From the NCBI GenBank assembly GCA_002104945.1, contig MCFH01000039.1, forward strand, positions 372,001 to 436,000: a stretch of 64,000 bases of DNA. The letters run 5' to 3'. The position numbers and the translations under genes are program-made. Below are positions 10,202 through 45,863 of this stretch, one piece after another; position 1 is the first letter of the stretch, and the number at the start of each line of letters is the position of its first letter. Source of the stretch: Piromyces finnis finn (taxonomy: Eukaryota; Fungi; Neocallimastigomycota). A model generated the notes under the pieces. That model worked only from the letters and a program-made list of their open reading frames with translations. It made no database searches and had not been told where the DNA came from.

Positions 10202-11007
10202 TGTAACAACGCGATAGACTCAGGTTAACACAACACTAATTAACTATTAGTGTTAACTGTTACACCTAAATGGCTTAGTTCTATTTTTAGTAACAGTCAT
10301 TATCATTAATTAAATTAATATAGCTAAATTTCTTATTGATATATTTTTAATTTCTGTTAAGTCATAAGAAAGGTTTATGATCCATACTTTATCATTTTAA
10401 TTTTAATTTACCTATTAAAATTTTTAAATGATCATAACTTCCTTAAGTAATCAGTTGGAAAGACCACGATTGTACCAAAATGTAGCTTTTTCCTTACGCT
10501 TTCTAATAAACTTAATTTTATTTTGGCGAGTTACGCCCTGTTTCGTGTTTGTTTATTTTTGGCTAAGGGTTATAGTGTATTGATATTAAATTTTTGAAAT
10601 CATAACCCTTTCACTGAATCAAAATTAGTAACCTGTCTTAGTGGTTAGTAACTAAGACCTTGGTTTGGACTACTCGAGTTTGAAACCTCGTCAATCTATT
10701 TTTATTAATTATCAAAATTTTTTTACAACAAAATTTTACCAAAAAAGATAATTTCTGATTGGTCTAAATAATTGTAAAATTTTTATAAATTTAATTTATA
10801 AATTTTTCATATAAATACTTATAAATTTTCTTTAAAATTTTTTATTCGAGTTTTTATTAACAAAAAATTTTTATAATAAAAATAAAATTATTAAACACTA
10901 ACCTATTATAATTTTGTTAAGTGTTCAATAATAAAATTTTTATTTATTTTAATTATTTTCCTTTTTTATATATTTGTGTTTTTATTTTTGAACATTAGTT
11001 CTTTACA
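10202..11007 (+). mobile_element. 5' LTR, group K (copy K1)
   Basis: TGTAAC...TTTACA; tRNA-like module, CCAAT and TATA motifs shared with 19.4, 28.5 and 45.5 kb copies; followed by self-complementary PBS and gag. Confidence 0.6.
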
Positions 11008-11651
11008 ATAAAAACTCCTAATATATAGAATAACACTTTAGTATTTAGAAAAGGAAGAATTTTTTATTTATTAAAATAATTAAGTCAGTGAAACTTATTT
11101 TAACAATAAGGGTACTGAAAACAAAAGTAAAACCCATAGTTATTATAAGGGGAGCGCAAGGACATTTAATTTAATAATAAAGAAAAAAATCCATTTTCTA
11201 ATAAAACTTTTTCTACTTTTAATAAATAAAATAAAATTTTATTATTTTTGAAAAATATTTATAAATAACAAAGAAGTTAGGATTCAACACCTCCCTTAGC
11301 GTTGATAGTTGGATACCTATACATAATACTTTGTTGTTTAGATATTATTAATAACCAGGGAATTAAACCTATTTTTTTCATTAAGTAAGTGACAATAAAG
11401 AAACTAATACCGTTAATTCCTTTTATTGAAAATTTTATATTTCCAATATTAACAATTAATCATATCTACGTTATTAACAAAGAGCTAAGAGAGACCTAGT
11501 ATTGATTACTAATAAAATTAAATATTTGATGGTCCAATACTATTTAATTTGACTCTTTATTTAATTTATTTAACTTTCTTAATTATTTTTTTAATTTTAA
11601 TTTTATTTCTATTTTCTTAATTGTTTTATAATTTTGATTTATTTAAAATAA

Positions 11652-13130
11652 ATGGAAGGACAAATATTCGACAACGCTTCATTAAAAGACGGCTTCACAG
11701 GAGATAGAAAATACCTCAAATGATTCTTAGAAAAAATAGAACTTGTTTTTCTACTTTATCCTGATAGATACCAGGATGAAGAAAGCAAGGTAATCTACCT
11801 GATTTCCCGCCTCTATGGAAACGCATTAAATTGGGCCGCTACGTTAATCGACAATCATGATCCATGTATGGCAAACTACCAAGCATTCAAGGAAAGATTA
11901 AAAGCATTTTATGGGAATACTGACGCCGTCTACGTAGAAAACCAGATGCTACGTACTCTTAAACAACATCGTTTGGGTGGTATTAGAGGATACATCCTTG
12001 GGTTCAATAAATATTCAGACGAATCCAACTGGAACGAAGAGGCTAAGATGGTCGCATGACTTAACCAAGAAGTGGCTATAAAGATTCTAGAAATGTTCCC
12101 AGGACCAAGAGACTTATTTTCTCTTCAAACTATTGCATCAAGGATAGACTCCAGACTCGCTACCAGAAGATTATTCTTTAATAAAAATTCTAATGGACAA
12201 AGATCTAATTTCAACACTGGATCCAGAAAAGCTTCCACAACTCTAAAAGAACATCCCAAGAAGAAAAAGAAAGAAGTAAAGAATACTTATGTATCTACTG
12301 TGGATCTCCGGGACATCAACTGAAAGATTGCCCTAAGAGAAGAAATAAAAACTCATCAGGTCGAATCTTTAGTTTCCATACTAAATGATTCCTCCGATTC
12401 CAAGAAAAATTAACCAGATAGGGTAACTTCAAATTTCAAGCTATCATATGAACTCCACACCAAAATCCTTATAGATTCCGGTTCCACTCTTAACTTGATC
12501 GATGTTGACTATTGCAATGATCATAACATCCCGTACCATTTATGAAGAAGATCTACCAAACTTATTTGGTATTGGTGTTAGTCAAAAACTATTTCAGAGT
12601 TATTCCGCCTCTTAACCTCCGTTATATGGATCATTTGTGTATTACTGTCTTTTACGTTACTGATCTACTTGTATATCCTTGTATTCTCGGTCTACGTTGG
12701 CTTAAGGAACACAATCCAAGTATTAACTTTGAAAATAACAAATTATCTTTTGGTTCTTTTTATTGCTTGGATCATTGTATGACTCTCTCTTCAAATGTTC
12801 CTGAATTCCATCAAGAAACTTCTGTTTTTTCTACTGATTCTACTGATTGCTATCACTCTACTTCTGTTTCTTTGCCTATTTTTATTTACAATCCTAACCC
12901 TTCTTTTTTAAGTTCTAAGTTATCTCATTCTCGTAATCCCAAAGAAAAATGTTCTAAATCTGTCTCAATTAGCAATGAATCTGTTAACAATCCTTCATCA
13001 CAAGAGTCTTGTCATGGTTTCTAATACTTCTCTTTCCAAAGTTGATCCTAATTTACCAAAAAAACTCTCTTAAGGACTCAAATATTATCACTAAACTTCC
13101 GAAGGAATTAGAATCTATGCTAAATTGTCA
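11652..13130 (+). pseudogene. gag: Chromovirus-type Gypsy gag-protease (group G/K), degenerate
   Basis: GFTGDRKYLK...NWAATL gag, ILIDSGS protease, YCLDHC motif; stops and frameshifts. Confidence 0.85.
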
Positions 13131-13419
13131 TATTACATTGAAAGAATGATAATGTTTACTATAAACATTTATTATAGATATATTTTTATATATTATTATC
13201 ATTATTATAATTATTATTATTATTTATGATGAATATTTTGTAATTAAAATTATTAATAATTCTCAGAGGGAATGACTAAATTTCAAAGATTTTCAAAACT
13301 TGTCTACACTGTTACTATTATTTATAAATATATATATAAAGATTTAAATAATGTATTAATTTTTATTTTTTTATTATTACCCAAACATCTCAAATACATT
13401 ATAAGTTATTTATTTATTT

Positions 13420-13806
13420 AATTTTTTGTAGATTATATTTTAATATACTTATTCTATTTAATTATACATATACTCAATATAAAATAAACAAAACTAATCT
13501 ATATATTAATTAAATATTAATAATACTATTCATTATATATTATTAAAAATGTTAATTTAAAACTACGCTAAAGTTATTAAACTAATTTTAATTAAATAAA
13601 AACTTTTTAAGATTTAATTTGAATATTTAAAATATTTAAATTTCATTTCTAACTTTGATATTTTAAAATTAATCTCTATTTAATTATTCAATAAAATTTA
13701 TATAATAAATTTTATAAATAATTTTTTCATTAAAATATCAAAATTATTATCTAATAATTATTAATTAATTATTAAATAATTTAAAGATATATTTTATATC
13801 TTTACA
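13420..13806 (-). mobile_element. Partial LTR, family C
   Basis: Reverse complement of 29647-30180 with internal deletion; terminus at 13806. Confidence 0.8.
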
Positions 13807-13832
13807 AAAAGTTATGATTTATGAATATATTT

Positions 13833-15330
13833 TTAAACTTTATCATCGATGTTTTTTCCAATGTTGTTATAAGAAAATGAAACAGCCCATTTTTGAGTTT
13901 CTCTAGAATCATTACATACATCACTTAATACGTATGTATAAATGGAACTGCAAATATCTAAACATAAATTTTCATTTCTAATAAAATTTGTATTCATAAT
14001 AGAATCAATAGAATCACCTTTTGAACATAAATTAATTTTCGAATTTCCATTAATAGGATCTAATTCTAAGCATAAAGTATTATTAAAAGAATTAATGCAA
14101 TGCCCTGGTTTAATTAATGGTATATACCATTTATTATAATCAGAATAATTGCAATTTTTTAATACCGGTTTTGAATATGAATTATCATTAAACTTAGACA
14201 TAAATATTTTCCCTTTTCATTTAAAATGTTTAAATTATATATCCATCCTAATTTATGATAAGAAGTTATATAATTATTATTTTGTGGTAAAGTAACATTA
14301 GTAGTCGTTGTAGGAGTTGTAGAAGTAATTATTGTTGTTGTTATTGTTGCTGAATATGACGTGACAGTATTTGTTATTTTATTTTTAACTGTTGTTATAG
14401 TTGATTCAACAGTAGCTGGTTTAGAATAAACATTTTTTGTTGAATACGAACTATTTTCATTTAAAATAGATGATAATGATGATGATGATGTTGTTGTTGT
14501 CAAAGTTTTCCCTGTCAGTGCTCAATCACCAAAATTTTGTTGACATCCTTTAAAAGGTAAACAATACTTTGAAGTAGTACCACAAACACCATCGTCAGAG
14601 CAACAATTCATTTTATTAGAATCAAGAATTTTAAAGCATTTTTTAAATCCTGCATATATGCCACATATATTTTCTAGATAAGAATTATTACAGGAGTATA
14701 CAATTCTTTTCCCGTTATTAGCGAATATATTAGGTGTTTCTTTTAATCTTTCAGTTGAATAGTATCGATCATATAAGATATCATTCTGTGATAATTCCAA
14801 AATCTTGTTTTTCAATATTTGTTGATTAAAAATTATATCTTTATTTTCAGATATAACTAAAGCTGAAATTCCTGTAACAATCGGTGCTGAATATGATGTT
14901 CCCTTAGCAAACATGTATTTATTGATTATTTTTGATCTATCATACGTACTTACAAAATCCTCACTGAAATAAGCTGCATATACAAATCCTGGTGCAAATA
15001 CGTCTGTACAATTGCAATAATTAGAAAAATTTGAAATAGTATATATATCTGATGATGATCCTTTTAAATATTCATTTTCATATAGATCTCTAATTCCGAC
15101 ACTACCAACACCAATAACATTATTAAAAAAAGAAGGGATATAACTACCTTCCTTAATACTATTCATTCGATTAAAAACACATCCATCTAATTATCATTTC
15201 CAGCATTAGCTATCTCCATTCTTTCAAGTTCTTCAATTTTACTTTTTATTGTAAAGTCATCCTTTTCTTTCTTATACCAACAAAATGACATGTTGATAAT
15301 TGTTTTATGTGGATTTATATTGTTTATGTA
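13833..15330 (-). pseudogene. Subtilase (peptidase S8) C-terminal half with chitin-binding (CBM18-like) module, Thr-rich linker and ricin-B-like region
   Basis: PHKTIINMSF, ANAGND, GTSYSAPIVTG catalytic Ser motif, CCSDDGVCGTTSKYC, LCLD..QKW; frameshifts and stops. Confidence 0.8.
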
Positions 15331-16103
15331 TGTAAAATAAGCTAAACTAAGTTCAGGTTTGTATACACTTAATAGACTAAACTAAACTTTAAATTATTTT
15401 TACTTATTATACTTTATTTATTAAATTATTTTAAATTAACTAAACTAAAACAACCGTTGATTACTTTACCGTGAAGGTTATTTTACCAGAGCCCTCACTA
15501 GGCAATCAATTTATATTTACGTAAAACTAAAATTAATAACTAAACTATTATTTTACTAATGTTAATTTATCTATACTAAATTAACCAATACGATTTTCCA
15601 GCTATCGTTTCAATAGTTGAAAAATTTTCTTTATTTATACTTTTTAAATAAATTGAATAAATTCTAATATACATGTTTTAATATTATAATTTTACATTGT
15701 TTACATTTATACATTTATTAAAAGAAATTATTTCTATTAAACTATTTAAATTCAATTTATTTACTAAAGAATTTTCTAAACTTAAAATAAAGTTTTGATT
15801 TATTTACTATATGGTTAATTATATTTCAAACATATATTTAATTTATTTATTTCTAATTTTGAGGCTTAGTTTATAAAAAAATTTTTTTATTATCTAAAAT
15901 ATTTATTGGTTAAAATTTACTTAATTTAAAATTCTATTTTATCATCAAAAACTTTATTTTATCATAAAATTAAATTTTACATAAATTTATGTTAATGTAT
16001 TGTGATATAAATTTTGTGAAAATTTACGGTACATTAATTTAATACATTATACATTATTTTAAATACGTCTTAATACATTATTCTATTAATACAATATTTT
16101 ACA
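15331..16103 (-). mobile_element. 3' LTR, family F
   Basis: Matches 5355-6123; preceded on the minus strand by PPT AAGAAGAGGGGCA and integrase end. Confidence 0.9.
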
Positions 16104-16386
16104 TGCCCCTCTTCTTAAGTCGAGCCCCTGAGCGACTTATGTTTAAGGTATTCCTGGATCATTTGAGGGTCTTCGATTTCATCTTCTCTAAGCCATGTAC
16201 TTTCTGAAGGTAACAAACTTTTCCAAACCATAAAGTAGTACTTAGTTCCATTAACAACTTTTTCACTAACAATCTTCAATGGAATTCTTCCTTCAGTAGA
16301 ATCGGTAGCAATGTTTAGAATTCTAGAAGTTGATTCATTCACTTCAACTTCTCTTTCAACATAAGTGTAACGATATCAAGTATCGT
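16104..16386 (-). pseudogene. pol: Integrase C-terminal chromodomain remnant + PPT (family F)
   Basis: YYFMVWKSLLPSESTWLREDEI. Confidence 0.85.
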
Positions 16387-17788
16387 TGATATAATTTGAT
16401 AATCTTAATTTTGAATTTTACTTCAAAAGGTGATTATTTGTAAAGATATCAAACGCCTCAGCTTGATATCTTTAATGTAACTTTAGCCACAAGTATTATT
16501 GTTTAAGTTACACAAATTATTCAGAAAAAGAAAATGAGACATAATTTATTTATTAACAATTAAAGTTTAAAACAAAATAAATTATTAATTTATTTTTAAT
16601 GTTTAACAAGTAAATTAAAATTCTCAATTTAAATCCCTAGTTTTAGTATTATTTTTTCATAGAAATAGATAAATAATATATAAATAATAAATGATTAATA
16701 TATCAATAATACATGGGCACATATTCAAATTAAATAGTACTTAATTTGAATTGCCAATTGTATTTTACTAAAAATAGTTATAGTTTAAATATTTATTTAC
16801 AATTAAGATTTTAATGTAGATTTTAAATAATAATATATTTTAAATAAATAGTTATAATATAATATAAATGTATTTAGGAAAAATATAAATAGAAGATATT
16901 TTTCATCATTTTGATCGATGTAATTGTTATTAATAAAATTTCTATTATAATAAAAGATATTTTTAATAAAACAATTTTTTATTTTATTTTAAATTTAGTG
17001 TTATTGTAATAGAATAGATATCCTAATCTATTCTTTCTGTGTCAGCATTACATTATTATATTATATCTTTAATTATAACTATATAAGTTATATGAATTAA
17101 AATTTAAAATTATTTTTATAAAAATTAATAAAATTGTTTTATTAAGACACTAAATTGTTTTATTAGAAGCACTCGTTTTTCTAATATTTAAATATTTAAA
17201 ATTTTATTTATTTAAGTATAAAAGTAATTATTAAAATTACAAAAATATTAACTGAACTATATAATATTTCTTTATTAATAATAATAATAATGATTAAAAT
17301 AAGAATATTTACATGTATTTATGTTTTCTTTTAAATTTAAACTATTTACATTAAAATAATAAAATTAATAACTATTTACAATAAAAGTAATAAAAGTAAT
17401 AATTAAAAGTTAAAGAATATAAAAAGTTGTTAGATTTACAATTAATTAAAGTAATAATTATTTTTAATGTTTTAATAAAGGTGTTTAATTATATTATTTT
17501 ATAACATGAATTATTATATTTGTTTACTTTTAAAGTGTAATTTACTAACGAAGTTATTAAATATTTAATTTAACAATTTAACAAAAGTTATATATTTTGA
17601 TCTCGATTAATTAAAGTTTATTATTTTCTTTCAATAATCAAAATATATGCAGTGTTTAGGATTAATTTTATTTAAGAATTTTGGTAAAGTACTTAATTAA
17701 ACTATAACTTATTTTAAGTTACTTTTAGGGTTAACTTAAAAATCAGGTTTAATAATAATTTTATATTTATTAATTTCATTATTTATCA
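16387..17788 (-). mobile_element. LTR, family D, interrupted by a solo LTR-A
   Basis: Diverged copy of 36516-37306; no flanking TSD. Confidence 0.9.
16439..17052 (+). mobile_element. Solo LTR, family A
   Basis: Family-A termini; TSD TTATT. Confidence 0.95.
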
Positions 17789-17795
17789 AACAAGT

Positions 17796-18924
17796 TGTAA
17801 AAGGTGTTTTTATATTATTAGTTAATAGGTTATTAATTAGTCAATTAAGTTAGTTATTACCTCTCTATACGAGTTAATAACTAAATAAAGTTTTATAAAA
17901 AATAATAAAAGAAAGAAAATAAATATTATAACACAAAAATAAATATAAGTATATATAAATATTATTATGAAATAAATTTACTTAAATAATTATTTTTTAA
18001 TTATATCTTTTATTTATTTATTTATTATAATTATAATACATTAATTATTATTATAGCTATTAATTTACTTTAATACTAACGCTAAAGTATTCAACGTTAG
18101 TTTTAACTATACTATTTAACTATATTAGTTTATTTTCTTTACCACTTGATTGGGTAAAGCAAATAAACTTCCTATTTAATTAATAACCATTAATATATGG
18201 TTATGCATATATCTGGCCATTAAATGGTGACCAGAATATATGGTTTGTTACGGATTTCACTTCAGTTAGGTCGGAATATACATATTTACCCTAAGTTTAT
18301 TAATTTAATAAATGAATAAATAAATATTTTAAATAAATAAATAGCATTTTATTAATTAACTTTATTTATTAATAAATTTTTATTTAAAGAAAAATTTTTA
18401 TTTATTAAATAGTATTATAATTAGAGTAAATATTAAATGTAATGAACTCTCGAAATTCCTAATGATAGGAATTTTCTCGAGTATTTATACTATCTCTAAT
18501 ATTAAGGAATACATTTTAAATTTAATACATGACTAATTATTTATATTAATTAACTATTCTATAAATTAATTACAAATTAATTATATATGACTTTTCACTC
18601 GTGTTAAATTTAATAATTATAAAAGTCATATTATCAATCATTTGTAGAAGGAATGATTATTTTATAATTTAGTTTTAATTTCCTTCTTAATCAAATGAAC
18701 AAAGAGATATTAATTCAAACTTTAATAAATATAAAATCTTAATAATTATAATTAATTAATATCTCTTAAAATACTATTTAATTATGTTTTATAATAAAAT
18801 ATTTCTAATTAATTAAACTAGTAAAACACTAATTAAATAAATAATCATGAATCCACTAATATTCATGACATGGTTTCAATTGAAATATTTATGGGCAAAC
18901 TTATGGCCACAAATATTTCTTACA
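17796..18924. mobile_element. Solo LTR, family E (copy 1), interrupted
   Basis: TGTAAAAGG...TCTTACA; matches 44937-45442; TSD CAAGT, right copy displaced by copy 2. Confidence 0.9.
18246..18870. mobile_element. Solo LTR, family L
   Basis: TGTTAC...ATGACA insert in LTR-E; TSD TGGTT. Confidence 0.85.
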
Positions 18925-18928
18925 CAAG

Positions 18929-19427
18929 TGTAAAAGGTTTTTTATATTATTAGTTACTAATTAGTTAATTAAGTTAGTTATTACCTCTCTATACGAGTTA
19001 ATAACTAAATAAAGTTTTATAAAAAAATAATAAAAGAAAGAAAATAAATATTATAACACTAAAATAAATATAAACACTTATATAAATATTTTATGAAATA
19101 ATTTTTACTTAAATAATTATATTTTAATTATATCTTTTATTTATTTATTATAATTATAATACATTAATTATTATTATAGCTATTAATTTACTTTAATACT
19201 AACGCTAAAGTATTTAACGTTAGTTTTAACTATACTATTTAACTATATTTAACTATATGAGTTTATTTTCTTTACCACTTGATTGGGTAAAGCAAATAAG
19301 CTTCCTATTTAATTAATAACCATTAATATATGGTTATATATATATCTGGCCAATAAATGGTGACCAGAATATATGGTTTCAATTGAAATATTTGTGGGCA
19401 AACTTATGGCCACAAATATTTCTTACA
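18929..19427. mobile_element. Solo LTR, family E (copy 2)
   Basis: Full E termini; TSD ACAAG (18924-18928 / 19428-19432). Confidence 0.9.
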
Positions 19428-19442
19428 ACAAGTAGTTAAATA

Positions 19443-19514
19443 GCTATATTGGTTCAATAGTCAACACCAGAATTATTAATTTGAATATTCTGGGTTCGAC
19501 TCAACCTGATACCA
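19443..19514 (+). promoter_or_regulatory. tRNA-like Pol III A/B-box module in a K-group LTR remnant
   Basis: A-box TGGTTCAATAG 19450, B-box GGTTCGACTC 19493, ends ATACCA; no full cloverleaf. Confidence 0.6.
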
Positions 19515-19945
19515 ATTTTATAAATAATTTTTATTGTTACAAAATATAAATACATTAATGTAGCAATTATTGTAGTTCTAGAATTTTTATCAATTAATTT
19601 AAAGAATTTAAGAATTTTCTAAAAAATTAAAAAAAATTAATTATTCTATTTTTCTATTTTTATATAATGAAATTAATTCTTAGAAATTCTAAAAATTTTT
19701 ATAAAAAGTATAAATACGAGTGAATTTTTCATCAAAAAATTTTTCTTCGTGTTTTTATTAATTAGAAATAAGTAATTTAAAATATTACAAATACTAATTA
19801 ATAAATAAAATTAATTTTCAGATTTTTATTAAGAAAAAATTATTTTCTAAAAAAACAAATTACTTATTTTAGTGTATACCTATTGTGGTAAAATTTAGTT
19901 TTTATTGATAAACTAATAATATTATTATTTATCTAATAAAAACAT

Positions 19946-20345
19946 TACAGTTTATATTACCTTCCTCTTTGATATAATCTAATGTTTATAATATGTTACT
20001 ATCTCGCAAGTCTGTAGCAATTGATATTAGTTTTTTTGCTACTCCAAAATGGAACCCATCAGCAACAGATGCTACTCTAGTTCCATGAATAGGCATTTTA
20101 ACATTATCCTTGAAAGAACAAAGTTTTCTTCTTTCATCGTCTTTTGAAAGTCTCTCGATTCTCCCATTTGAAATAATTGCGTCACAAGAAACTGTACGCT
20201 CCTGTTCATCAATACTTGATGTCGTTAAAGAAATCCAAATGATATGTATTGATACCTTTATCAATAATAAATATCAATACCTTTTCCCGATTCTTTCGGA
20301 ACATAGTATATACTATCATACAACTTAAGTTTTGTATTATTATAT
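19946..20345 (-). pseudogene. Subtilase (S8) N-terminal catalytic fragment
   Basis: IFIIDKG (Asp motif, alternative frame), HGTRVASVA (His motif), GVAKK. Confidence 0.8.
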
Positions 20346-20584
20346 AAATATTGAGAAATTAATAAAAGATGGTTATACGCATCTTTTTGTAATATTAAAA
20401 ATATATTTTCTTTTCATCTTATAATGCCCTTCTTGAAATCTTTTATTGATGCCAATATATTATTTTATTTTTTTTTGTTACCGAAAAAAAAATATCTATT
20501 AATTTTAATGAAATTAGTAGAAAGAATAAAAGATTATTGATTTTACTCTAATTAATAATTATATCAAAATAGATAGATTATTAT

Positions 20585-21563: not shown

Positions 21564-21633
21564 ATAAAAACACTTTAAGAAAAAGATTGCTACCTCAGTG
21601 TTTATTTATTTGTTTACTTCTAATTTTTTTTCT

Positions 21634-28456: not shown

Positions 28457-28530
28457 TGGTATGACTCGAACCTGGAAAATTTATGTCTAATAACAAGAGT
28501 ATTACCGATTTCTCTACGATTCGAATACCA
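28457..28530 (-). promoter_or_regulatory. tRNA-like A/B-box module in the 3' LTR of G
   Basis: TAGAGAAATCGG (28516) and GGTTCGAGTC (28472), 44 nt apart; ends ATACCA. Confidence 0.6.
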
Positions 28531-29646: not shown

Positions 29647-30373
29647 TGTAAAGATATAAAGTATATCTTTAAATTATTTAATAATTAATTAATAATTATT
29701 GAATAATAATTTTGATATTTTAATGAAAAAATTGTTTATAAAATTTATTGTATAAATTTTATGAAATAATTAAATAAATATTAATTTTAAAATATCAAAG
29801 TTAGAAATGAAATTTGGATAAATATTTAAATTAATGGATAATTAAATTTAAATATTTTAAATATTCAAATTAAATCTTAAAAAGTTTTTATTTAATTAAA
29901 ATTAGTTTAATAACTTTAGCGTAGTTTTAAATTAGCATTTTTAATTATAAATATATAATAAATAGTATTATTAATATTTAATTAATATATAGGTAATACA
30001 TGGACTGTATTCAATTTGCAGTTTACTCAAATTGAATCAAAAGTGTATTTAATTAGTTTTAGTTTAGTTTTATTATTTTATTATTTAATTAAATTAGTAT
30101 TAAATTAGTTTTGTTTATTTTATATTGAATATATGTATAATTAAATAGAATAGTATATTAAAATATAATTTACAAAAAATATAAATACATGTAAAATTTC
30201 TTGATTAAAACGATGTAATTGTTATTGACTATTATTTAGTTAATAACTAAATAAAATTAATAAAAGAGATATTTTTTTAAATATAATTTATTTTCTTGTT
30301 TTTTCTTTATTTTGTGTTGTTGTTTTATTGTAAAAATTTTTATAATCTGTTTTACATTTATAAAACTTTTACA
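29647..30373 (+). mobile_element. Solo LTR, family C
   Basis: TGTAAAGATATA...TTTTACA; TSD CTCAT; splits integrase at RCTK|MSHF. Confidence 0.95.
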
Positions 30374-31056
30374 CTCATCTTCGTACAGCGATTGACAATA
30401 ACAAGAATACAATTGAAACCGTCGGATTTAAGAAGATCCGTGACAAAGTCCATTGGGATTGAAGACCAAGGCCTAGAACTAATAGGGAGCGACTCCAAAA
30501 ATCCATACGGTTTGTGTCTTAGGTCTTTAAACCGACAACAGACAGAGAAAGAACGGACAAAGTTTTCTTCATACCATAATGACTAGCAGCAGGGGAATCA
30601 TGACATATTTGTAAAACAGAAGACCGGCACGAAGGGGGATGCAAATTTTATCGTTATGTAGAAGAAAGTTATTCCGAATACAAAATTTATTATGGAGGTC
30701 AGTTGAACAAGAAGGACCGTTACTTAAGGAGTCGCAGATTTTAGAGTAAAACTGGTCATCCTTGTACCCAATAAGAATCGACCCATTGAGAGTGGAAACA
30801 GAGGAGACTAAGGCGCAAAAGTTTTCAGACTTGAGTACAGAAAAGGATGAAAAAAAATCATTTAGAGTATTTAGATAGTTTGGCCGTCTTGATAAGCAAT
30901 TTGGTTTGCCATTCGAAGAGCCCGGTCTAAATTCAATTTGGAAATTGAATTCGGAAAGAAAGGAACAAAGATCAGCGAACGAGTCGATTGGTCATCTTTT
31001 CAGATTTATTCTGAAAGAGAAGATTACGATGGTCTGAAAAGATTTTAACGGGAGAG

Positions 31057-31852
31057 TGTAAAGATATAATATATATTTTTAGATTATTTAATAATTAATT
31101 ATTAATTATTAAATAATAAATTAATATTTAGTAAAACTGATTATAAAATTTTTGAATAAATTTTATGGAATAATTTAATAATAAATTATTTTATAATAAT
31201 TCCGTTAAATTTAAATTAAGATAAATATTTAAGTTTAAGGAATAAAAGAATTTTAATTAAATTTAAATACTTCAAATATTTTAAATATTCATAATATTTT
31301 CTAAATACCTTTTATTTAATTTTAGAATAGATTATACTTTTTTATTTAAATTTAGAATAGTTTAATAATTTTAACTTAGTTTTAAAAATAGATAGATTTA
31401 TTTATATTTCAATAGGAAATATATTAAGAATAGTATTGATAGTATTAAATTAATTTATAGAAAATACATGGGCTTTATTCAATTCTGAGTTTACTCAAAT
31501 TGAATTAAAAGTATAATGAATTAGTTTTAGTTTAGTTTTGTTATTTTATTATTTAATTAGATTAGTGTTGTTTATTTTATATTAAATATATGTTTATTTA
31601 AATAGAATAATATATTAGAATATAATTATGAAAAAATATAAATACATGTAATTTTTGTTTATTAAATCGATGTAATTGTTATTTTCAATTTTTTAATTAT
31701 TAACTATTATATAGTTAATAATATTTTTAAGAGTTTAAATAAAAATGTTTTTTTTAAAAATAAAAATTTAATGTTTTATTTTTTTATTTTTGTGTTAATA
31801 AAAATTGTTTTGTTTTAAGTATAAAATCTGTTTTAAATTTTATACTTTTACA
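31057..31852 (+). mobile_element. Solo LTR, family B
   Basis: Similar to 57394-58146; TSD GAGAG; splits RNase H. Confidence 0.95.
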
Positions 31853-35600: not shown

Positions 35601-37319
35601 GATAAATAGTTAATAATATTATAAATCAGATAGTTGAATAATTGTAATGAATTGCTACGGTTCAAATAAGATATCACAAAACACTTGAATAGTTATAAAA
35701 ATAAAAATTTATTTAATTTTAATTTTTATTCATTTAATTTATTTTTGATTTTTCAATTTTTAAAATTTTTCTCAAAAATCCTCGTACTTTTTCCAACTAT
35801 CCATTATTTGAAATTTAATGGTTTTGGATAGCTAAGGATTTAAATTGATTTCATTCATAATATATGGATCATTCACTGTAACATATATTAATTAAATCCT
35901 TAATATATATTATGAATAATCTCTTAATATTTGAATAGAAAAATTTTTAATTTATAATTAATAAATTTTTAATTTATGATATGTGTAACATTTTTGCATA
36001 TCATATATTATATATTTAATTATGACATATAATAAAATTATATTATTCAATTAATTATGCCCTTTTTTAGACATAAATAATAATTTTTCTGTCGAGGTAT
36101 CTTCTGTTTTGTGTGTAACAGTTGCCTCTTTTAGTAAAAATTATAATTAAATTCTATGTCATAATTTCAAATTATAAAATATTATACAATAAAGTTAATT
36201 AATAAAATAAACCTTAAATAATAATAAAATACCTATAACTATTTTAATAATAAAATTTTGTAAAATTTTATAAGTATAAAATATTATAAGTAATTATACT
36301 AATACTAATAATAAAGGTCTTAAATAACTATATACAAATAATATAACTATATAATAAAAATATTAATAATTACTAGAAAAATGTATAAAAATTATATATT
36401 ATAATTTTTATATTTTAAAAATAGAGTTAAACACTAGTAAGGAATATAAATAGTTGAAGGTTAAATCCTAAAATTCTAGCTAATTCAACTATTTATGTTC
36501 ATTCCTTAACAGAATTGATATAATTTGATAATAATCTTAATTTTGAATTTTACTTCAAAAAGTGATTATTATATTATATCTTGAGTTATAACTATATAAG
36601 TTATATGGATTAGAATTTGAAATTGTTTTTATAAAGATTAATAAAATTGTTTTATTAAAAACACTAAATTGTTTTATTAGAAACACTCGTTTTTCTAATA
36701 TTTAAATATTTAAAATTTTATTTAATTAATTATAAAAGTGATTATTAAAATTATAATATTTCTTTATTAATAATAATAATAATGATTAAAATAAGAATAT
36801 TTACATGTATTTATATTTTCTTTTAATTTTAAACTATTTACATTAAAATAATAAAATTAATAACTATTTACAGTAAAAGTAATAAAAGTAATTAAAAATA
36901 ACAATAAAAGAAATAATTAAAAGTTAAAGAATATAAAAAGTTGTTTATTTTACAATTAATTAAAGTAATAACTATTTTTAATATTTTAATAAAAGTGTAT
37001 AATTATATTATTTTATAACATGGATTATTATATTTGTTTACTTTTAAAGTGTAATTTACTAACGAAGTTATTAAATATTTAATTTAATAATTAATTTAAC
37101 AAAAGTTATATATTTTGATCTCGATTAATTAAAGTTTATTATTTTCTTTCAATAATTAGAATATATGCAGTGTTTAGGATTAATTTTATTTTAGAATTTT
37201 GGTAAAGTAATTAATTAAACTATAACTTATTTAAAGTTACTTTTAGGGTTAATTTGAAAATCAGGTTTAATAATAATTTTATATTTATTAATTTCATTAT
37301 TTATCAGTTTCTCGGCCTT

Positions 37320-40300
37320 TTAAGAATTAACTTCGTCCCTTGAAGTCAAATTTTGTTCTGGTAGAACGTAAGGAAAAATATTTTTAATATGCACATTTCT
37401 ATCAAGTAGTTTTCCTGTATGTGGATCTTCAAGTACAACAGTATTAAATTTTTGTTTATTAACAACTTTATAAGGACCATAAAAATAAGGATTTAATTTA
37501 CTTCTTCCTATTAATCTTATCATAACATAATCACCTGGTTTATAAGTTTTCTTTAAAGCTTTGGATAAACCTATTCTATGTTCCCAATATTGATTAGCAT
37601 GATTAGAATATTCAGTAGCTTGTTTTACCCAATTTTGATGCCTTAAAAATCTTCGAAAAATATATTCTTCTTCTGTTTCATTAGGATCTTTATAAATATC
37701 AGGAAACATTATTTCTAATGGCCATGTGTCTCTTCTACCATATAATAGTTCGAAACTACTAAACTTAGTTTTTGAATTTTTGGTGGTTCTAAGTGCCCAA
37801 AGTGCAGATGGTAAATATTCATCCCATTCGGATTCATTTTCAATTAAAAGTCTTAAAGTTTTTCCAATTTCTTTGTTTCTATTTTCAATCATACCATTAG
37901 ATTGTGGGTGATGAGGAGAAACAAAATGAACCCATGATCCATATAGATCAATCATCATTTTAGTAATATCAGACATAAACGAACTTCCATTATCAGTAAC
38001 AATTATTTCTGGTGGACCGTGTCTTGTTATTACTTCTATTAAAAATTTTATTACTTCTTCTGATTTCATATTTGGGATTGCTTTAGCTTCAACCCATTTG
38101 GTGAAATAATCAACAAGGGTAATAATATAAGAATTTCCATGTTTAGTAAGTGGTAATGGACCAACTATATCTAATCCGACTCTAGTAAATGGTTGTTCAA
38201 TTGGGGTTATATTATCTTCAGTATTTTTAGGTAAAGGTTTAGGTCTACAAAGTTGACATTTTCTACAGGACTTTACCCACATTCTTACATCATTCCAAAT
38301 ACCAGGCCAATAGTAAGATTTTAAAATTCTATTTGTGGTCTTTTCAGCACCTTCATGACCAACAGAATGAGCACGACTAATAATATCCTTTTTATCTTCA
38401 TCTTTATAAATAACTTTAAGATATAATTCATCCTTTTTGTAATAAAGAGTATTATCAACAACTTGATAATTTTTAGTAAAATATTTTTTTATTCCTTCAG
38501 GTAGGTCTAAATCTCTTGGATTAAAATCAGATAAAATTGCATAAGCGCAATTTACTATTTCATTAGAGTTTTTAGAAGGCAATCTTGAAAGAGCATCAGC
38601 AAAAACATTTTTCTTTCCTTTATCATATTTTAATTCAATTTTATATTTATTAAATTCTTCAATCCATCTTGCATGTCTACCTTTTGATGGAATATTCTTT
38701 TTATAGAATCCAAGTAATGGTTTATGATCGGTAATTAATATGGTAGGATTTTTATTACTTATAATATATTAACGAAATTGTAAAATAGCATAATATATTG
38801 CTAATCCTTCAAGATCAGTAACAGAATAATTCTTTTCTGAAGTAGATAAAGTACGACTAATACAACAAATTGGATGTTCCAATTTGTCCCCCTCCACCTG
38901 TAAGAGTACAGCACCAATGCCATTAGTTGATGCATCAGTACGAATAATAAATTCTTTATTAAAATCAGGATAACTTAAAATAGGATCACTTAATAGACAT
39001 TGTCGAATATCTTCAAAAGCATCATTACATTCTTGTGACTAAATATATTCTTGGTCTTTCTTTAATAAATTAAAAAGAGAACTTGCTCTAATAGAAAAAT
39101 TTTGAATAAATTTGCGGTAATAACTAGCTAGACCTAGGAATGATCTTAGTTCATTAACATTTCTTGGAGCATTCCATAAGGCAATACTTTGAACTTTAGA
39201 AGGAACAGTTTTTAATCCATTAGGTGTAAGTACATGTCCTAGTACTTCTACCTTTTCTTGAAAGAATTTACATTTTTGTAAATTAAGAGAAAGATTATAT
39301 TTAGATAATATTTCAAAAACTTGTTGTAAATGATAAAGATGTTCTTCAGGTGATTTAGAATAAACAACAATATCATCAATATAAACAAAAAGACATTTAC
39401 CAATTAATGGTAAGAGAATCCTATTCATTTCTCGCTGGAAAGTAGCGGGAGCATTAGTTAAACCAAATGGCATTACTTTAAAATTATAATTACCAAATTT
39501 CGTTGTAAAAGCAGTTTTTTCAATATCATTTGGATTCATAGGAATTTGATGATAGCCAGAATATAAATCTAAAGCAGAAAATATTTTTGCACCATTAACA
39601 GAAGAAATTAATTCATCAATAAAAGGAAGTGCATAAGAATCCTTAATGGTAATTTCATTAAGTCTTCTATAATCAATACACATTCTCCATTTACCATTTT
39701 TCTTTTGTACAAGCAGAACTGGAAATGACCATGGAGAGTGAGGAGTAATTAAACCTTTATCAAGTAATGAAAGAATTTCACTTTTTAAAATATCAGCATG
39801 TTCCTTAGATAATTTATAAGGTTTTAATTTTATTGGTTTATTAGTAGTAGTAATTATAGAATGAGGCTCTAGATCCGCAGTAGTTAATTGAGACATTGAT
39901 GTAGCCATACAATTTTTATATTTATTTATAATATGTTCAAATTTTGATTTAATATTATCAGGTGTTGAATTTAAAATTTCTTTTAATGTATCTTGAAATT
40001 CTTGGTTTTCTTCTTTTGAAATAATTATAGAATTCATCAAAGGAATATCATTAATATCATTATCATTACTATTGATAATATTTGTAATTTTCTTTAAACC
40101 TTTTTTTGTTTTTTGATATATATAATCATCATCAGGGTCAATAAATAAACGGTATTTCTTTTGAATACCTCTTCCAAAAATTATATCAAAGTATGGGTTA
40201 CTTTGTTCTATAATATAAAATTTTTCTAAAATAGTACAACAATTATTAATATTTATTTTTAAAGTAGTAAAAATATTTGTAGGAACAGTAGTACCATTAG

Positions 40301-41168
40301 CAATAGTTATATTTTGTTCCTCATCACTTTTTTCAATATTTTTATTAGATAATTTATTAAAACCATTTGTAGTAATGATATTGACGTTTGCGCCAGTATC
40401 ATAAAGAATTTTTAAATATTTTCCATCTATGTCGCCAATTATTAATGGAATATTAGAGTTATTAAAGGAGTACATCACTTTTTCAACTTTAGGTTTACAA
40501 CCTTGTTCTAATTCTTTTCTAAGCGATGGACTAGTAGAGAGTAATTGAGAAAGACTTATTTTTGGATATAAATTATTTGCTTCTTTAATTATACTAAATT
40601 TATCTTTGGTTTTTAACATTTGTATTTCTGTCATATTTCTTTTTGTAGTTACCTTGGGTTTGACAAGATTTTTCTTTACTTTTATATTATTAGTTTCATT
40701 ATTATTTTTAAAAGTTTCTTCATTAGTAGAATTGTTAGAATCATTAATTTCAATAGGTTGGATATGTTCTTTTGTATTCGTAACTTCTTCTAAAGGTATT
40801 TCATTGGTATTATTTTGTTCTTCTTCACTTTCTATTTCTGTTTCTTCATTTGGGATTTCTTCCATCTTTTCATCTTTATCTTCACTAATTTTTCTTCTAC
40901 GAGTATCTCTAATATTCTTCTTTTGTTGTTTTAAATTCCTAATGTTGGGTTGGTTAAGTATTGAGGGTTTGACAATACTTTTATTATTTGATGATATTTT
41001 ATTTTTATCTAGTGTTTTAACATTTATTCTCTTCTTTTGAGCGGCATTTATAGAATAATTATTTTCATTAGAGATATTAGAATTTATTTGGGCTTCTTGT
41101 ACATTTTGTGAATTGTTTGCAATTTTAGTTTTTATGGGAGATTGCTTACTCCCATTATTTAATTTAAA
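37320..41168 (-). pseudogene. pol: Pol of element D (PR-RT-RH-IN) with two in-frame stops
   Basis: LYDTGA, YIDD, RTDAS, HHCC, TDNGSSF, GPY; stops at 39039-39041 and 38769-38771; one frame from 41168. Confidence 0.92.
41119..41168 (-). promoter_or_regulatory. -1 ribosomal frameshift signal (slippery site + pseudoknot)
   Basis: T TTA AAT before the gag stop, 6-nt spacer, ATGGGAG/CTCCCAT and GCAAT/ATTGC stems; -1 frame is pol. Confidence 0.8.
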
Positions 41169-42127
41169 TGATTATATTCATCATCTAATTCTGGACAATC
41201 ATTCGTAGTATGACCTATTCTTTTACAATTTAAACAAACATTAATTTTTAGGTCAGCAAGCTTTTGAGTTATTTCTTTTAGTTCATCATCATTATTTTGT
41301 GGATATTTTAAGGTACTTCTTCTTTGCTCAACATTTTGACTAATATTATTAAATCTTGGATAATTATTGTTATTATTATTGTAGTTATTATTTTGAATAT
41401 TACTATTATAATTATTATTTCTGTAGTTATTAGTATAATTTCTATTATTATAATTTTTAAAACTATTTTGGGTGGTATTATTATTATTCATTCGGTTATA
41501 ACTATTAAAATTATTGGAATATGCTTTATCATTATTTCTTTGAGCATTATTATCATTTGGAGATCTTCTAGAATTAATGGAGGTCCTCATTTTGGGTCTA
41601 TTTTCTTCGACTATGTTATAAATTTTCTCTTTCTTAATAGTAATATTCCTGGCTTCTTCTAAACTTTTTGGTTCAGCTTCTAATAGTGCCTCATAAGTCT
41701 TGGTAAAGTTTCTAAAGGCATTAATATAGTATGATATAATAATTTCATTTGACATTTTTAGATTTGTTTTATTTATTAGAGAGTCAAATTTTATATTAAA
41801 TTCAGATACACTTTCATTTTTCTTTATTGTAATAGTAGATAATTCTAATAATCTAGAATTCTTTGGTATGGAACCTCTAAAATAATTTTTAAGGTTTTTG
41901 ACGATGGTATCATAATCATCTGGTGTCTCTTTATTTAATGCATTAACTACAATTGTTCTAGCGGTACCTGTAGTTAATGATATAAGATATTCTAACTTTT
42001 CTTGTTCTGGTATCTTATATAAATTACACCAATGTTTAAAAGAAAATTCCCAATCATCAAATTCAACCTTTGTTGAACCCAAAATAGGTATTCTATTAAA
42101 GGTGATACCTTTAGTAGTATTATCCAT
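41159..42127 (-). CDS. gag: Gag of element D
   Basis: Intact 322-aa ORF, Asn-rich segment, CLNCKRIGHTTNDC. Confidence 0.9.
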   Translation of the reverse strand: MDNTTKGITFNRIPILGSTKVEFDDWEFSFKHWCNLYKIPEQEKLEYLISLTTGTARTIVVNALNKETPDDYDTIVKNLKNYFRGSIPKNSRLLELSTITIKKNESVSEFNIKFDSLINKTNLKMSNEIIISYYINAFRNFTKTYEALLEAEPKSLEEARNITIKKEKIYNIVEENRPKMRTSINSRRSPNDNNAQRNNDKAYSNNFNSYNRMNNNNTTQNSFKNYNNRNYTNNYRNNNYNSNIQNNNYNNNNNNYPRFNNISQNVEQRRSTLKYPQNNDDELKEITQKLADLKINVCLNCKRIGHTTNDCPELDDEYNHLN

Positions 42128-44120
42128 TATTACTTTTTATTTTTATTTTATTTAATTTTATTTTAATATTTTATTTAAAAGTTTTAATTTTATTTGTTTA
42201 TAATAAGTACAATAATATATTTTTATTTACAATTATTTTTATTTATACTGAATTTTTTTTATTTACAATAATATAATTTTATTTACAAGTATTTAGTATT
42301 ATTTACAATAATTTGTTCACAATAAAATAATTTTATTTACAGATATTTTTTTTTTTTTTTTTTATAAAGGATATTAGGTTTTTTTTTTTTTTTATTAATA
42401 AAATATACTCTTATATAATGTAGTATGATAGAGAGCAATTTAGTTGTTATGTGTAGACAGTTATTTTAATTTTATTGTTATTAGGGAACTTTATTCTTGA
42501 GAAAATTTTATTAACGTTATGAGTATATTTTATTTATATCAAATTTTTTTTATATATTAGTATTGTTATTTATAAAGAATAGTTGTTTTTAATGTAAGGT
42601 ATATATATATATTTCTTTTATTATTACAAAGCAGAAAGATAATATTGATTATGTTGTTATAGTACCTTCAGAGTACCCGACAGTTTCGTCACCGTGCCTT
42701 TCGACCTCCACTAACTAACCGTCATAAATATTAAGTGGTGTAATATTTACTTATTAGTTAGCGCTCTACTCCCCCACGATATGTGATAAAACTGCACTCT
42801 TACTAACTTACTATAAAACACTTTAATTATCTCAGTAATTAATTAACCGAAAAGATAAACAAAAGTTATTTTTCGCTGAAAATTAACTAAAAAGACAACT
42901 CAATATTATTGCTTTTATTATTTGAAATTTATAACAATACTTTTAATTTTATTTAACCGATGATTATATTTTATAATTTTTATTAAATAATTTTTATCTT
43001 TAATTTATAAATTATACTTATTAATTTATAATTATAATTTATGTATTTCTTTTTCTTTTAAAAAAAAATAATTAAATATAAAACTTTATTTACAGGATTT
43101 ATTTTTCGCTTTTTAGTGCCTTACAACAATTTAATTAACCGGCAAAAGCTACTAACTAGAGGTGATATACTAGACCTCAAAATAAATTTAAACTATATAT
43201 TTTTATGTCGCTTTACCTTCACGACAAACCTTTAGCCTTCGGTGACTAAAGTTCCTTATTCGCCAGAGTTCACTAAAGTATTCAACTTGAGAGTCCTGTA
43301 TTGCGTGCTTTTTATCACACTAACAATCCCTTCCTCCAAGTAAGCGTGCTATTCACACTCGTCCTACTTTTACAAATACTTCAGTGATTAACAGCTATAG
43401 TTTCTAACCGACTGAAACTAGTTAATTATACACTGAAACTCTGTATATGAGCTCTATACGCTCCTAGTATATTTTTACAAGTATTTTTAATTTATAAAGT
43501 TTTATATTTATAATAATTTTTTTTTTTTTTTTTTTTTTTTTTTTGTAGTATATATATTTTTTATATATATATATACTTATATCTTTATTTATTATTATTT
43601 TATTTTATTATATGTTTGTTTTTATGTATATATATCTAATGTATATATACCTATTTTATTATTATTATTATTATTAATTATTTTAACTATCTAATTTATA
43701 ATATTATTAACTATTTATCTAATCTATGATATTTTTATAAAATTCTTTTCTTATTTAAAATATTTATATATTTTATATAATATATAATATTTATATATCA
43801 ATTTGCTATATTAATACTATACTATTAAGTATTATAATTTATTTATTTTATTTTTAATGTTATTTTAATAATATTTAAATAATATTTCAATATTGGGTAT
43901 TGATTTATTATTTTAATATTACTTTATTATTTAATATTTATTAAATTTTAATAAGCTATAATTTCTAAATAGATGAAATATTGAGAATATCTAACTATTC
44001 TATTAACTATCTATTCTATACTATTATAACTTGATTATTTAATTAATTTCATAAAATATTTTACTATTTTTTATGAAATTTTTATATAAAGAAAATTTTA
44101 TATTTACCTTATTTTGATTC

Positions 44121-44137
44121 TCCGGTTCGAAGGACCA
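44121..44137 (-). promoter_or_regulatory. PBS, tRNA-Tyr-like 3' end
   Basis: TGGTCCTTCGAACCGGA 1 nt after the 5' LTR. Confidence 0.85.
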
Positions 44138-44936
44138 TTGATATAATTTGATAATAATCTTAATTTTGAATTTTACTTCAAAAAGTGATTATTATATTAT
44201 ATCTTGAGTTATAACTATATAAGTTATATGGATTAGAATTTGAAATTGTTTTTATAAAGATTAATAAAATTGTTTTATTAAAAACACTAAATTGTTTTAT
44301 TAGAAACACTCGTTTTTCTAATATTTAAATATTTAAAATTTTATTTAATTAATTATAAAAGTGATTATTAAAATTATAATATTTCTTTATTAATAATAAT
44401 AATAATGATTAAAATAAGAATATTTACATGTATTTATATTTTCTTTTAATTTTAAACTATTTACATTAAAATAATAAAATTAATAACTATTTACAGTAAA
44501 AGTAATAAAAGTAATTAAAAATAACAATAAAAGAAATAATTAAAAGTTAAAGAATATAAAAAGTTGTTTATTTTACAATTAATTAAAGTAATAACTATTT
44601 TTAATATTTTAATAAAAGTGTATAATTATATTATTTTATAACATGGATTATTATATTTGTTTACTTTTAAAGTGTAATTTACTAACGAAGTTATTAAATA
44701 TTTAATTTAATAATTAATTTAACAAAAGTTATATATTTTGATCTCGATTAATTAAAGTTTATTATTTTCTTTCAATAATTAGAATATATGCAGTGTTTAG
44801 GATTAATTTTATTTTAGAATTTTGGTAAAGTAATTAATTAAACTATAACTTATTTAAAGTTACTTTTAGGGTTAATTTGAAAATCAGGTTTAATAATAAT
44901 TTTATATTTATTAATTTCATTATTTATCAGAATACT

Positions 44937-45442
44937 TGTAAAAGGTTTTTTATAATATTAGTTAATAAGTTGCTAATTAGTTAATTAAGTTAGTTATTAC
45001 CTCTCTATACGAGTTAATAACTAAATAAAGTTTTATAAAAAATAATAAAAGAAAGAAAATAAATATTATAACACTAAAATAAATATAAACGCTTATATAA
45101 ATATTTTATGAAATAACTTTTACTTAAATAATTATATTTTAATTATATCTTTTATTTATTTATTATAATTATAATACATTAATTATTATTATAGCTATTA
45201 ATTTACTTTAATACTAACGCTAAAGTATTTAACGTTAGTTTTAACTATACTATTTAACTATATTTAACTATATGAGTTTATTTTCTTTACCACTTGATTG
45301 GGTAAAGCAAATAAGCTTCCTATTTAATTAATAACCATTAATATATGGTTATACATATATTTGGCCAATAAATGATGACCAGAATATATGGTTTCAATTG
45401 AAATATTTGTGGGCAAACTTATGGCCACAAATATTTCTTACA
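44937..45442. mobile_element. Solo LTR, family E (copy 3)
   Basis: E termini; TSD ATACT. Confidence 0.95.
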
Positions 45443-45447
45443 ATACT

Positions 45448-45863
45448 AGAAATAACTAAATTGTCTTAGTGGTTAGTAGCTAAGACTTTGAGTCTGAATG
45501 ACACTAGTTTGAGACCTCATAGATACTATTTTAAAAAAATTATAATTTTATTTTATTTTTAAATTTTATTTTATATGAAGATTATTGATTGGTTAAGAAT
45601 TTTAAGTTGAAAAAATTTTATAAATTAATTTAAAAAATTTTTAGTATAAATACGAGTGAATTTTCCCAAATATTTTAAAGAATCGAGATTTTATTAATAA
45701 ATAATTATATTATTAAACACTAACTTATTAAGTTAAATTCTATGTGTTTTTAATGATATTTTTATAAATTAATAATTTACAGAATATTTTAAAGTGTTAA
45801 TATTACTAAGTTATTTAGTAAATATTATAATTTGTTTTATTGTTAAAGACACATTTCTTTACA
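45448..45863 (+). mobile_element. K-group LTR remnant (K5) with degenerate A/B-box module
   Basis: Homologous to 10630-11007; TGTCTTAGTGG at 45462, AGTTTGAGAC at 45506; ends TTTACA. Confidence 0.6.

Follow-up and report, generated by a model that had tools for sequence, protein, structure and literature searches.

In a 64,000-nt stretch of Piromyces finnis DNA, analysed here as a whole and referred to as the window, we found four tRNA-type RNA polymerase III (Pol III) modules inside LTRs, and such modules likely attract other retrotransposons. At three of the four (M1, M2 and M4), LTR elements had inserted 19–23 nt before the A-box, suggesting that the boxes bring in the machinery of tRNA transcription and thereby serve as landing pads that move with the LTR. 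We put at roughly 70% the probability that a tRNA-type unit in the U3 of gypsy LTRs loads TFIIIC and TFIIIB, and that other LTR elements dock there, as with Ty3.

The A-box/B-box pairs lay where the original prediction had placed them, at 10634/10677 (43 nt apart), 19450/19493 (43 nt), 28516/28472 on the minus strand (44 nt) and 45462/45506 (44 nt), and the stated B-box sequences were found there, as were the two ATACCA ends. Judged by A- and B-box consensus motifs, with the B-box core as in PMC5391098, all four modules had a type-2 layout (A-box, B-box, tRNA-like spacing and T-run), the T-run starting 11–15 nt past the B-box each time. M1 (10634..10703, plus strand) consisted of an A-box at 10634-10644, a B-box at 10677-10687 with a T at the C56 equivalent, and a T5 run at 10699-10703. 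M2 (19450..19519, plus) had its A-box at 19450-19460 and a perfect B-box at 19493-19503, with T4 at 19516 and T5 at 19528; M3 (28443..28516, minus) had its A-box at 28516-28505 and a perfect B-box at 28472-28462, with T4 from 28446 and T8 from 28431; and M4 (45462..45532, plus) had its A-box at 45462-45472, its B-box at 45506-45516 and T4 at 45529. The window copies of M1 and M4 each carried one key B-box mismatch, and these two modules had been described as decayed. That description held for the T in place of the B-box C in both copies, but at M4 the T (at 45510) was specific to this copy, since most family copies have the canonical C, which made up 98% of the summed depth in DNA run X1 (68,008.7/69,250.5) and was also present in contigs of X5 and X6. 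Over ~240 nt, these contigs differed from the window by 1 letter and 10 gap positions, the sole letter difference being that canonical C. Boxes were better conserved than flanking LTR sequence in the one comparison made, between LTRs K1 and K4, where the boxes of M1 and M4 were identical at 21/22 positions and the other LTR sequence at 216/287 (p = 0.019).

All four modules sat inside LTRs and upstream of a TATA-like motif, which bears out the predicted order of module and TATA/R part on motifs, the TATA/R assignment being motif-based only and the K3 TATA weak. M1 lay in the K1 5′ LTR, whose portion downstream of the W insertion (10614..11007, plus) carries TATAAATA at 10810; the start of this LTR was ambiguous (10202 or 10251), and a decayed gypsy gag followed from ~11652. 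M2 lay in K2, a solo LTR with nested inserts (15327..19949, plus; TSD GTTTA) that splits a subtilase/CBM18 gene and is tied to the K group by shared motifs in AT-rich DNA only. M3 was located within the 3′ LTR/U3 of K3, 184 nt past the integrase stop of a decayed chromodomain gypsy element (28204..34535, minus) spanning gag-pol-chromodomain, and the alignment of this LTR with the 5′ LTR was restricted to the 3′ 111 nt. M4 belonged to K4 (45443..45863, plus; TATAAATA at 45645), probably a 5′ LTR, from a multi-copy family in other copies of which a PPT precedes the LTR. The opening few bases of K4 were found at ~36506-36515, past the B and X insertions, and reads put the LTR start ~27 nt before the A-box, so that the idea of an extended U3 preceding the module was rejected. 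The internal part of K4 fell outside the window, and an X6 contig extended ~780 nt beyond the LTR. Sequence similarity places K3 and K1 in the chromodomain clade, K3 by a chromodomain at the integrase C-terminus (PF00385, E = 6e-8) and K1 through gag similarity only (61% over 67 aa). Within the same gag subclade there was one more LTR, the fifth (K5), and it had no module.

The elements inserted before the modules belonged to families X, B and probably W; there were six insertions, four with clean TSDs, and all in one shared orientation. W, a probable solo LTR (10258..10613, minus) with TG...CA ends and a 5′ hairpin on the minus strand, ended 20 nt before the M1 A-box; neither a clean TSD nor a second copy of it was found. 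At M2, a B-family solo LTR (16387..17788, minus) that has lost its TSD and has an A-family LTR nested within it (16439-17052) lay 23 nt before the A-box once later inserts are removed, X solo LTR 1 (17796..18924, minus; TSD CAAGT) lay 21 nt before it in the frame without X solo LTR 2, and X solo LTR 2 (18929..19427, minus; TSD ACAAG) lay 22 nt before it. A Y solo LTR inside X solo LTR 1 (18246..18870, minus; TSD TGGTT) was 75 nt from the A-box in the frame without X solo LTR 2. At M4, a gypsy B element (36516..44929, minus; 4-bp TSD GAAT) with identical LTRs (791/791), a tRNA-type PBS and no chromodomain ended 21 nt before the A-box in the frame without X, and an X solo LTR (44937..45442, minus; TSD ATACT) ended 19 nt before it. 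TSD sequences varied between sites, and M2 and M4 did not align outside the boxes. The minus-strand sense of the X family was judged from its PPT.

We delimited 16 insertions in the window, and all six of X, B and W ended 19, 20, 21, 21, 22 or 23 nt before an A-box, compared with none of the ten others (0/10 in the 19–23 nt range). Under a uniform model with only two independent sites counted, these positions had a p of ~1e-5, for a range that was derived from the same data and agrees with published distances. The X copy nearer the module was the younger one, in that X solo LTR 2 matched the X at M4 at 492/498 positions and X solo LTR 1 at 427/443. M4 carries the T mutation here, yet it received the very young B and afterwards X, and the B-box change must accordingly be very recent. 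No insertion preceded the M3 A-box despite its perfect B-box. The insertions before the modules, and hence the landing-pad effect, had been overlooked in the original prediction.

An unlikely alternative is that X and B favour the 5′ ends or hairpins of other LTRs, as well as the ends of one another, and that this preference creates the hot spot, with the boxes as passive remnants of an old tRNA-SINE insertion. The insertion zone coincides with LTR nt 7–13 in K4, and also in K1 if that LTR starts at 10251, so that an LTR-end preference is confounded with the distance to the boxes; in K2, nt 5 is occupied by a further element (at 15331), and the gap from B to X was exactly 7 nt at both sites. 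Elsewhere, X 5′ flanks (10 of 13 loose-end rows, 30 letters each) showed no clear A-box, and among the X flanks listed two had the start of another LTR 1–9 nt off and one was a mixed consensus (5 contigs). However, at least 25 nt of K2 lay ahead of the M2 site, and two other contigs had a different A-rich stretch before 19433, indicating that the offset to the LTR start varies while the offset to the A-box is constant at 19–23 nt. Furthermore, neither X nor B was found at the 5′ end of any of the four listed A-family LTRs that have no module, and the idea of passive remnants sits poorly with boxes that show conservation and that have the canonical form across the family.

We then considered what the modules encode. 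Their likeness to tRNA was confined to boxes and spacing: ARAGORN found 0 tRNA genes in the window, and Rfam at E ≤ 5 returned four weak matches with tRNA among none; none of the modules is a tRNA. The earlier inference that a tRNA-derived cassette had been captured in U3 finds support in the boxes and spacing only. None folded as a full cloverleaf, as had been noted before; all formed hairpins, a single long one in M2 (z −3.9). The ATACCA ends were out of the tRNA 3′ register, ending 12 and 6 nt past the last B-box core base, a distance that is 15 nt in a tRNA. Two readings of ATACCA, as the copy of a tRNA 3′ end and as a reverse PBS, were discarded: besides its register, no LTR end adjoined it and the folds paired it with a TGGT on the 5′ side.

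The spacers of M1/M4, M2 and M3 were mutually unalignable and shared no fold, so that no conserved RNA product is evident. This would fit modules that bind TFIIIC alone, as an ETC-like insulator or barrier from which RNA is not made, an explanation that we regard as improbable. The conserved A-box, the tRNA spacing and the terminator position instead suggest a full unit, and the insertions coincide with the place where transcription is predicted to begin. In yeast, sites that bind TFIIIC alone are not targeted by Ty3 (PMC5911963), which makes an insulator of that kind a poorer fit.

That the motifs arose by chance in AT-rich LTRs is very improbable. A strict scan (perfect B-box, A-box with at most one mismatch, T-run) detected two modules, M2 and M3, where 40 block-wise dinucleotide shuffles led us to expect 0.15, whereas a loose scan that also admitted M1 and M4 gave 10 vs. 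6.1 ± 2.2 expected, so that M1 and M4 were non-significant from the window sequence alone; T-runs, moreover, are frequent at 24% GC. M4 is rescued by the family data (the canonical C at 45510) and M1 is supported through its homology to M4, and chance is further opposed by the canonical family B-box, the box conservation and the constant insertion distance at three modules.

It is scarcely credible, and was already disfavoured, that Pol III makes the genomic RNA of the element from the LTR promoter as in Helenus or Cassandra, for although tRNA-type boxes do lie within the LTR, as they do in Helenus, 4–11 runs of T5 or longer follow each B-box within the LTR, and K1 and K3 encode proteins, measure kilobases and have a TATA-like motif apart from the module, in contrast to Helenus at 311-1263 bp and non-coding (PMC10886601). 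The analogy with Cassandra that had been drawn thus fails mechanically: T4–T5 runs occur 11–15 nt past the B-box, ahead of those further runs, and modules unable to make full-length element RNA are neither Helenus nor Cassandra.

According to PMC10886601, Helenus is a tRNA-type TRIMp3 (Kojima 2024) of Pucciniales and Agaricomycetes that is thought to depend on Copia, and the main text of that source contains no mention of nested, chytrid or neocallimast. Like Helenus, the modules described here combine conserved tRNA-type A- and B-boxes inside an LTR with the lack of a functional tRNA, occur in fungi, and are associated with a 5-bp TSD (here at the solo K2). Unlike Helenus, which has recognisable tRNA similarity, they show none detectable beyond the boxes; K1 and K3, at the least, are gypsy elements that encode proteins and not non-coding TRIMs (K2 being solo); and candidate T-run terminators directly follow the module, where in Helenus Pol III would be able to read on into the second LTR. 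Cassandra, a plant TRIM with a 5S (type 1) promoter whose RNA runs from 5′ LTR to 3′ LTR, likewise bears a Pol III promoter on its LTR (PMC10886601), but here the layout is type 2 and the predicted stop lies at most ~50 nt from the B-box.

The insertion distance links these sites to known integration systems. For all six insertions at the three sites, 19–23 nt before the A-box equals 12–16 nt before the equivalent of the tRNA first base, and in the excerpts of PMC5006619 and PMC5911963 considered, this resembles Ty3 of S. cerevisiae, DGLT-A of dictyostelids and Tj1 of S. japonicus, with insertion ~15 nt before the tRNA first base for Ty3 and 13–16 nt for D. purpureum DGLT-A (PMC5006619). B also resembles DGLT-A in having a tRNA-type PBS and no chromodomain, and its integrase matched that of Ty3 (7q5b) at E = 7e-25, less strongly than foamy virus integrase. 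As these sources describe them, the targets of Ty3, DGLT-A and Tj1 are host Pol III genes, whereas in the present case another retrotransposon carries the target, a non-tRNA module, and Ty3 inserts in both orientations, whereas the six inserts here all point one way. A parallel for bare boxes is TRE5-A, which targets non-tRNA A/B-box loci on Dictyostelium rDNA, its insertions being taken as evidence of a Pol III complex (PMC5391098, excerpts); it differs from the present case in being a non-LTR element that inserts ~47 bp upstream, at fixed host rDNA sites rather than on a mobile LTR. The ingredients are thus known singly, from Helenus, Cassandra, Ty3 and TRE5-A at bare A/B boxes, and we found no report of the combination, or of any of it in this lineage, in the open-access literature searched.

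When the end of the X LTR was searched for in one metagenome scan, two chance bacterial matches came back, the K1/K4 module had 0 matches in viral contigs, and the B integrase matched one and four distant viral-contig loci in two scans. A genome-contig scan yielded 62 loci, of which nine (L008-L016) were AT-rich relatives of the B clade binned into prokaryote assemblies; these stopped at or just inside their LTRs and had no tRNA there, and 11 related loci contained 0 tRNAs in all. The K module was not found among 75 loci scanned, the matches being one bacterial tRNA, coding regions and one PBS-anchored pair, and K4 and W searches of five assemblies binned as prokaryote gave AT-rich noise or nothing, an absence that is uninformative there. 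A likeness of X to repeats at the end of L127 was rejected as non-significant (128 vs. a shuffle maximum of 131). Contigs from runs guessed to be RNA covered M4 together with the PPT and left M2 uncovered; we did not count these as Pol III evidence.

Taken as indirect evidence, the insertion pattern makes Pol III factor assembly at the modules likely. We propose that the unit of A-box, B-box and T-run in U3 would load TFIIIC and TFIIIB, that the integrases of X, B and W would dock on TFIIIB like that of Ty3, leading to insertion 19–23 nt ahead, and that each newcomer would land between the older insert and the module. The Pol III product would be a non-tRNA RNA of ~90–120 nt, ending at the first T-runs and well short of the LTR TATA-like motif. 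Why the unit is retained is the least supported part of this explanation. Tentatively, the host element may keep it because the unit opens chromatin locally, or acts as a barrier, to the benefit of the element's Pol II promoter 150–260 nt downstream. More doubtful is the broader idea of a chromovirus lineage in which a minimal Pol III gene is retained as a portable barrier, shielding the element's promoter in the heterochromatin that its chromodomain seeks. The lineage would thereby seed new TFIIIB docking sites for several unrelated tRNA-targeting retrotransposons, so that one mobile element would write the insertion map of others and build the nests of the genome.

Targeting tRNA genes is usually read as a safe-harbour strategy toward fixed host genes. 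If a functional Pol III start site is part of an LTR, the target is itself mobile and amplifies with the repeat. The intact and the one-base-changed B-box would also offer a natural pair for the effects of Pol III factors on an LTR promoter. If our reading is true, targeting of the Ty3 type would reach into a fungal lineage that diverged early, and the stacked nests in the large, LTR-rich genomes of gut fungi would be explained in part.

We found the four A-box/B-box pairs of the original prediction in the window, at 10634, 19450, 28516 (minus strand) and 45462 (modules M1–M4, borne by the LTRs K1–K4, respectively), spaced by 43, 43, 44 and 44 nt, with a run of at least four Ts beginning 11–15 nt past the B-box in each. 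The lack of a full cloverleaf was also confirmed, the modules folding as hairpins (better than shuffles in M2 only, z = −3.9), and neither ARAGORN nor Rfam identified a tRNA. A strict motif scan of the window recovered M2 and M3, with 0.15 matches expected, while a loose scan gave 10, with 6.1 ± 2.2 expected; M1 and M4 are not validated by the loose scan alone. The claim that two B-boxes are decayed held only in part, as that of M4 reflects a change in the window's copy: position 45510 is C in 98% of the depth of DNA sequencing run X1 (68,008.7 of 69,250.5 summed depth), which makes the M4 B-box canonical. Contigs of two further samples differed from the window in this letter and in 10 gap positions over ~240 nt. 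The depth of the K4 piece was 17,587 and that of several junction contigs roughly 150–370; these values are not copy numbers, and their contrast points to K4 being a multi-copy family. The M2 family is a low-copy one, and its variants show 3–4 differences within 19438–19482.

Comparing K1 with K4, we observed identity at 21/22 box positions, 11/17 spacer positions and 216/287 positions of the remaining LTR (Fisher p = 0.019), so on this one pair the sequence argues against the boxes being no more conserved than flanking LTR. The 15 nt past the A-box, which pair with it as a closing hairpin, were identical at 13 positions.

The K1 LTR, with gag downstream of it, ends at 11007. K3 belongs to a minus-strand element whose integrase has a terminal chromodomain (PF00385), M3 lying 184 nt beyond its stop. 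The gag pieces of K1, K3 and K5 share 50–61%, compared with 33–37% against the A and C LTR families. K5, from the K1/K3 subclade, comprises a 5′ LTR and the beginning of gag (20477–21900, with an A-family solo LTR within). It has no A/B module in 20477–21562, and the trait is therefore not clade-wide. K2, a solo LTR (15327–19949, target-site duplication (TSD) GTTTA) with subtilase-like frames on either side, is a putative K-group member by motif only. In its other copies, K4 is preceded by a polypurine tract (PPT) and the LTR starts ~27 nt before the A-box; TATA-like motifs lie ~150–260 nt downstream of the A-boxes. The window has a GC content of ~24%, and nested Ty3/gypsy and copia fragments surround a minus-strand host gene encoding a subtilase (S8) with chitin-binding CBM18, whose two parts (14522–15326 and 19955–20300) are separated by the K2 nest and whose 5′ part contains stops.

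Sixteen insertions were delimited in the window, belonging to LTR families X (3), B (2), W (1) and others (10), and distances were taken from the module-facing end to the A-box in a frame without later inserts. At M4, X lies 19 nt (TSD ATACT) and B 21 nt (TSD GAAT) before the A-box; at M2, the solo LTRs X1 and X2 lie at 21 nt (TSD CAAGT) and 22 nt (TSD ACAAG) and a B solo LTR, its left flank lost, at 23 nt; and at M1, W, only a probable LTR, lies at 20 nt. TSDs were clean in four of these six, and the U3 end faced the module in all (X, from the PPT in reads; B, from ORFs and primer-binding site (PBS); W, solely from a 5′ hairpin). None of the ten remaining delimited insertions fell 19–23 nt before an A-box (p ~1e-5, counting two independent sites under a crude uniform model). 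Among X copies the younger is closer to the module, as expected if a fixed protein landmark places each newcomer. B lacks a chromodomain and has a tRNA-type PBS. Among the closest homologues of its integrase, the single one with a named source is from Orpinomyces (50%), which makes an anaerobic gut fungus (Neocallimastigomycota) the likely origin of the window.

Several other repeats were noted. With X2 taken out of the frame, the Y solo LTR (18246–18870), within X1, ends 75 nt short of the M2 A-box and 68 nt before the tRNA base-1 equivalent, a single case. Unrelated LTR families carry a 9–13 bp hairpin in their first 50 nt: W (10258–10613), Y, A (21924–22529) and X (44937–45442). An inverted partial copy of the B 5′ UTR, gag and protease (45876–48926 vs 39939–43611, 84–92%) starts 12 nt beyond the K4 LTR end; near 35000–35050, the end of a second B-like integrase, a PPT and the start of an LTR were seen by eye; and a C-family LTR fragment, inverted relative to the full C element's 5′ LTR, forms a ~780-nt near-palindrome (56823–58126). 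A scan of genome contigs with the B integrase returned AT-rich gypsy contigs (L008–L016, 36–80% like it) in several prokaryote assemblies, likely misbinned gut-fungal repeats. On the contig L123, a contaminant of fungal type, a motif resembling a PBS lies just within a gypsy element (9101–9048, minus) and is at the same time an A-box; a B-box follows after 43 nt, with no T-run beyond it. On L127 (5900–6251), the 3′ LTR end of a B-clade relative adjoins two tandem repeats that start like the X U5 end, with no significant similarity to X; this stack resembles that at M2, and no target is reached within the contig.

We consider it probable (roughly 0.7) that the U3 Pol III unit loads TFIIIC/TFIIIB and that elements insert 19–23 nt in front of it through integrase docking on TFIIIB. 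The boxes would be bound by TFIIIC, which would load TFIIIB, the likely docking point for X, B and W integrases, and Pol III would make an RNA of 90–120 nt ending in the first T-runs. An A-box starts at tRNA base 8, which places the X, B and W insertions 12–16 nt before base 1. In passages of the sources cited, Ty3 inserts ~15 nt before base 1 and DGLT-A 13–33 nt before it (13–16 in D. purpureum) (PMC5006619), Tj1 inserts 1–10 bp ahead of the start site (PMC5911963), and insertions in Dictyostelium rDNA served as evidence that Pol III complexes form on A/B boxes outside tRNA genes (PMC5391098), the same reasoning as used here. A passage on yeast reports that TFIIIC-only sites are not Ty3 targets (PMC5911963), which favours a complete complex at the modules rather than an insulator that binds TFIIIC alone.

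It is unlikely that X and B simply prefer LTR ends: at K4, and possibly at K1 too, the insertion window does fall on the opening bases of the host LTR, but M2 speaks against such a preference. Counting against the modules as landing pads, no insertion was found in front of M3, though the module is intact, and at M4 a very young B was followed by X and last by the B-box change, so that all three events must be recent. Ten of 13 rows of X loose ends included PPT junctions, the window's own junction, one mixed consensus, one flank that lacked an A-box and two flanks that started another LTR within 1–9 nt, which fits stacking and does not identify the target.

The suggested analogy with Cassandra failed, since 4–11 runs of at least five Ts lie between each module's B-box and the LTR end, so that Pol III, unlike at Cassandra, would not make the element's genomic RNA there. 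Among described designs, Helenus comes nearest (PMC10886601), but its recognisable tRNA body, short non-coding TRIM form and read-through are absent here; the K module behaves as a Pol III unit would that Ty3-like elements target, and is not a Helenus. Among open-access papers we found none that describes such modules, either from this lineage or from the LTRs of protein-coding gypsy elements; the Helenus Table S1 or Repbase may list longer tRNA-like LTRs, and a passage in PMC10886601 speaks of "not a few LTRs" with tRNA similarity. An RNA function of the module seems less likely than a chromatin effect, because the spacers have no common sequence or fold, and our preferred guess is that the host element keeps the unit because it shields its own promoter as a barrier or holds the chromatin there open.
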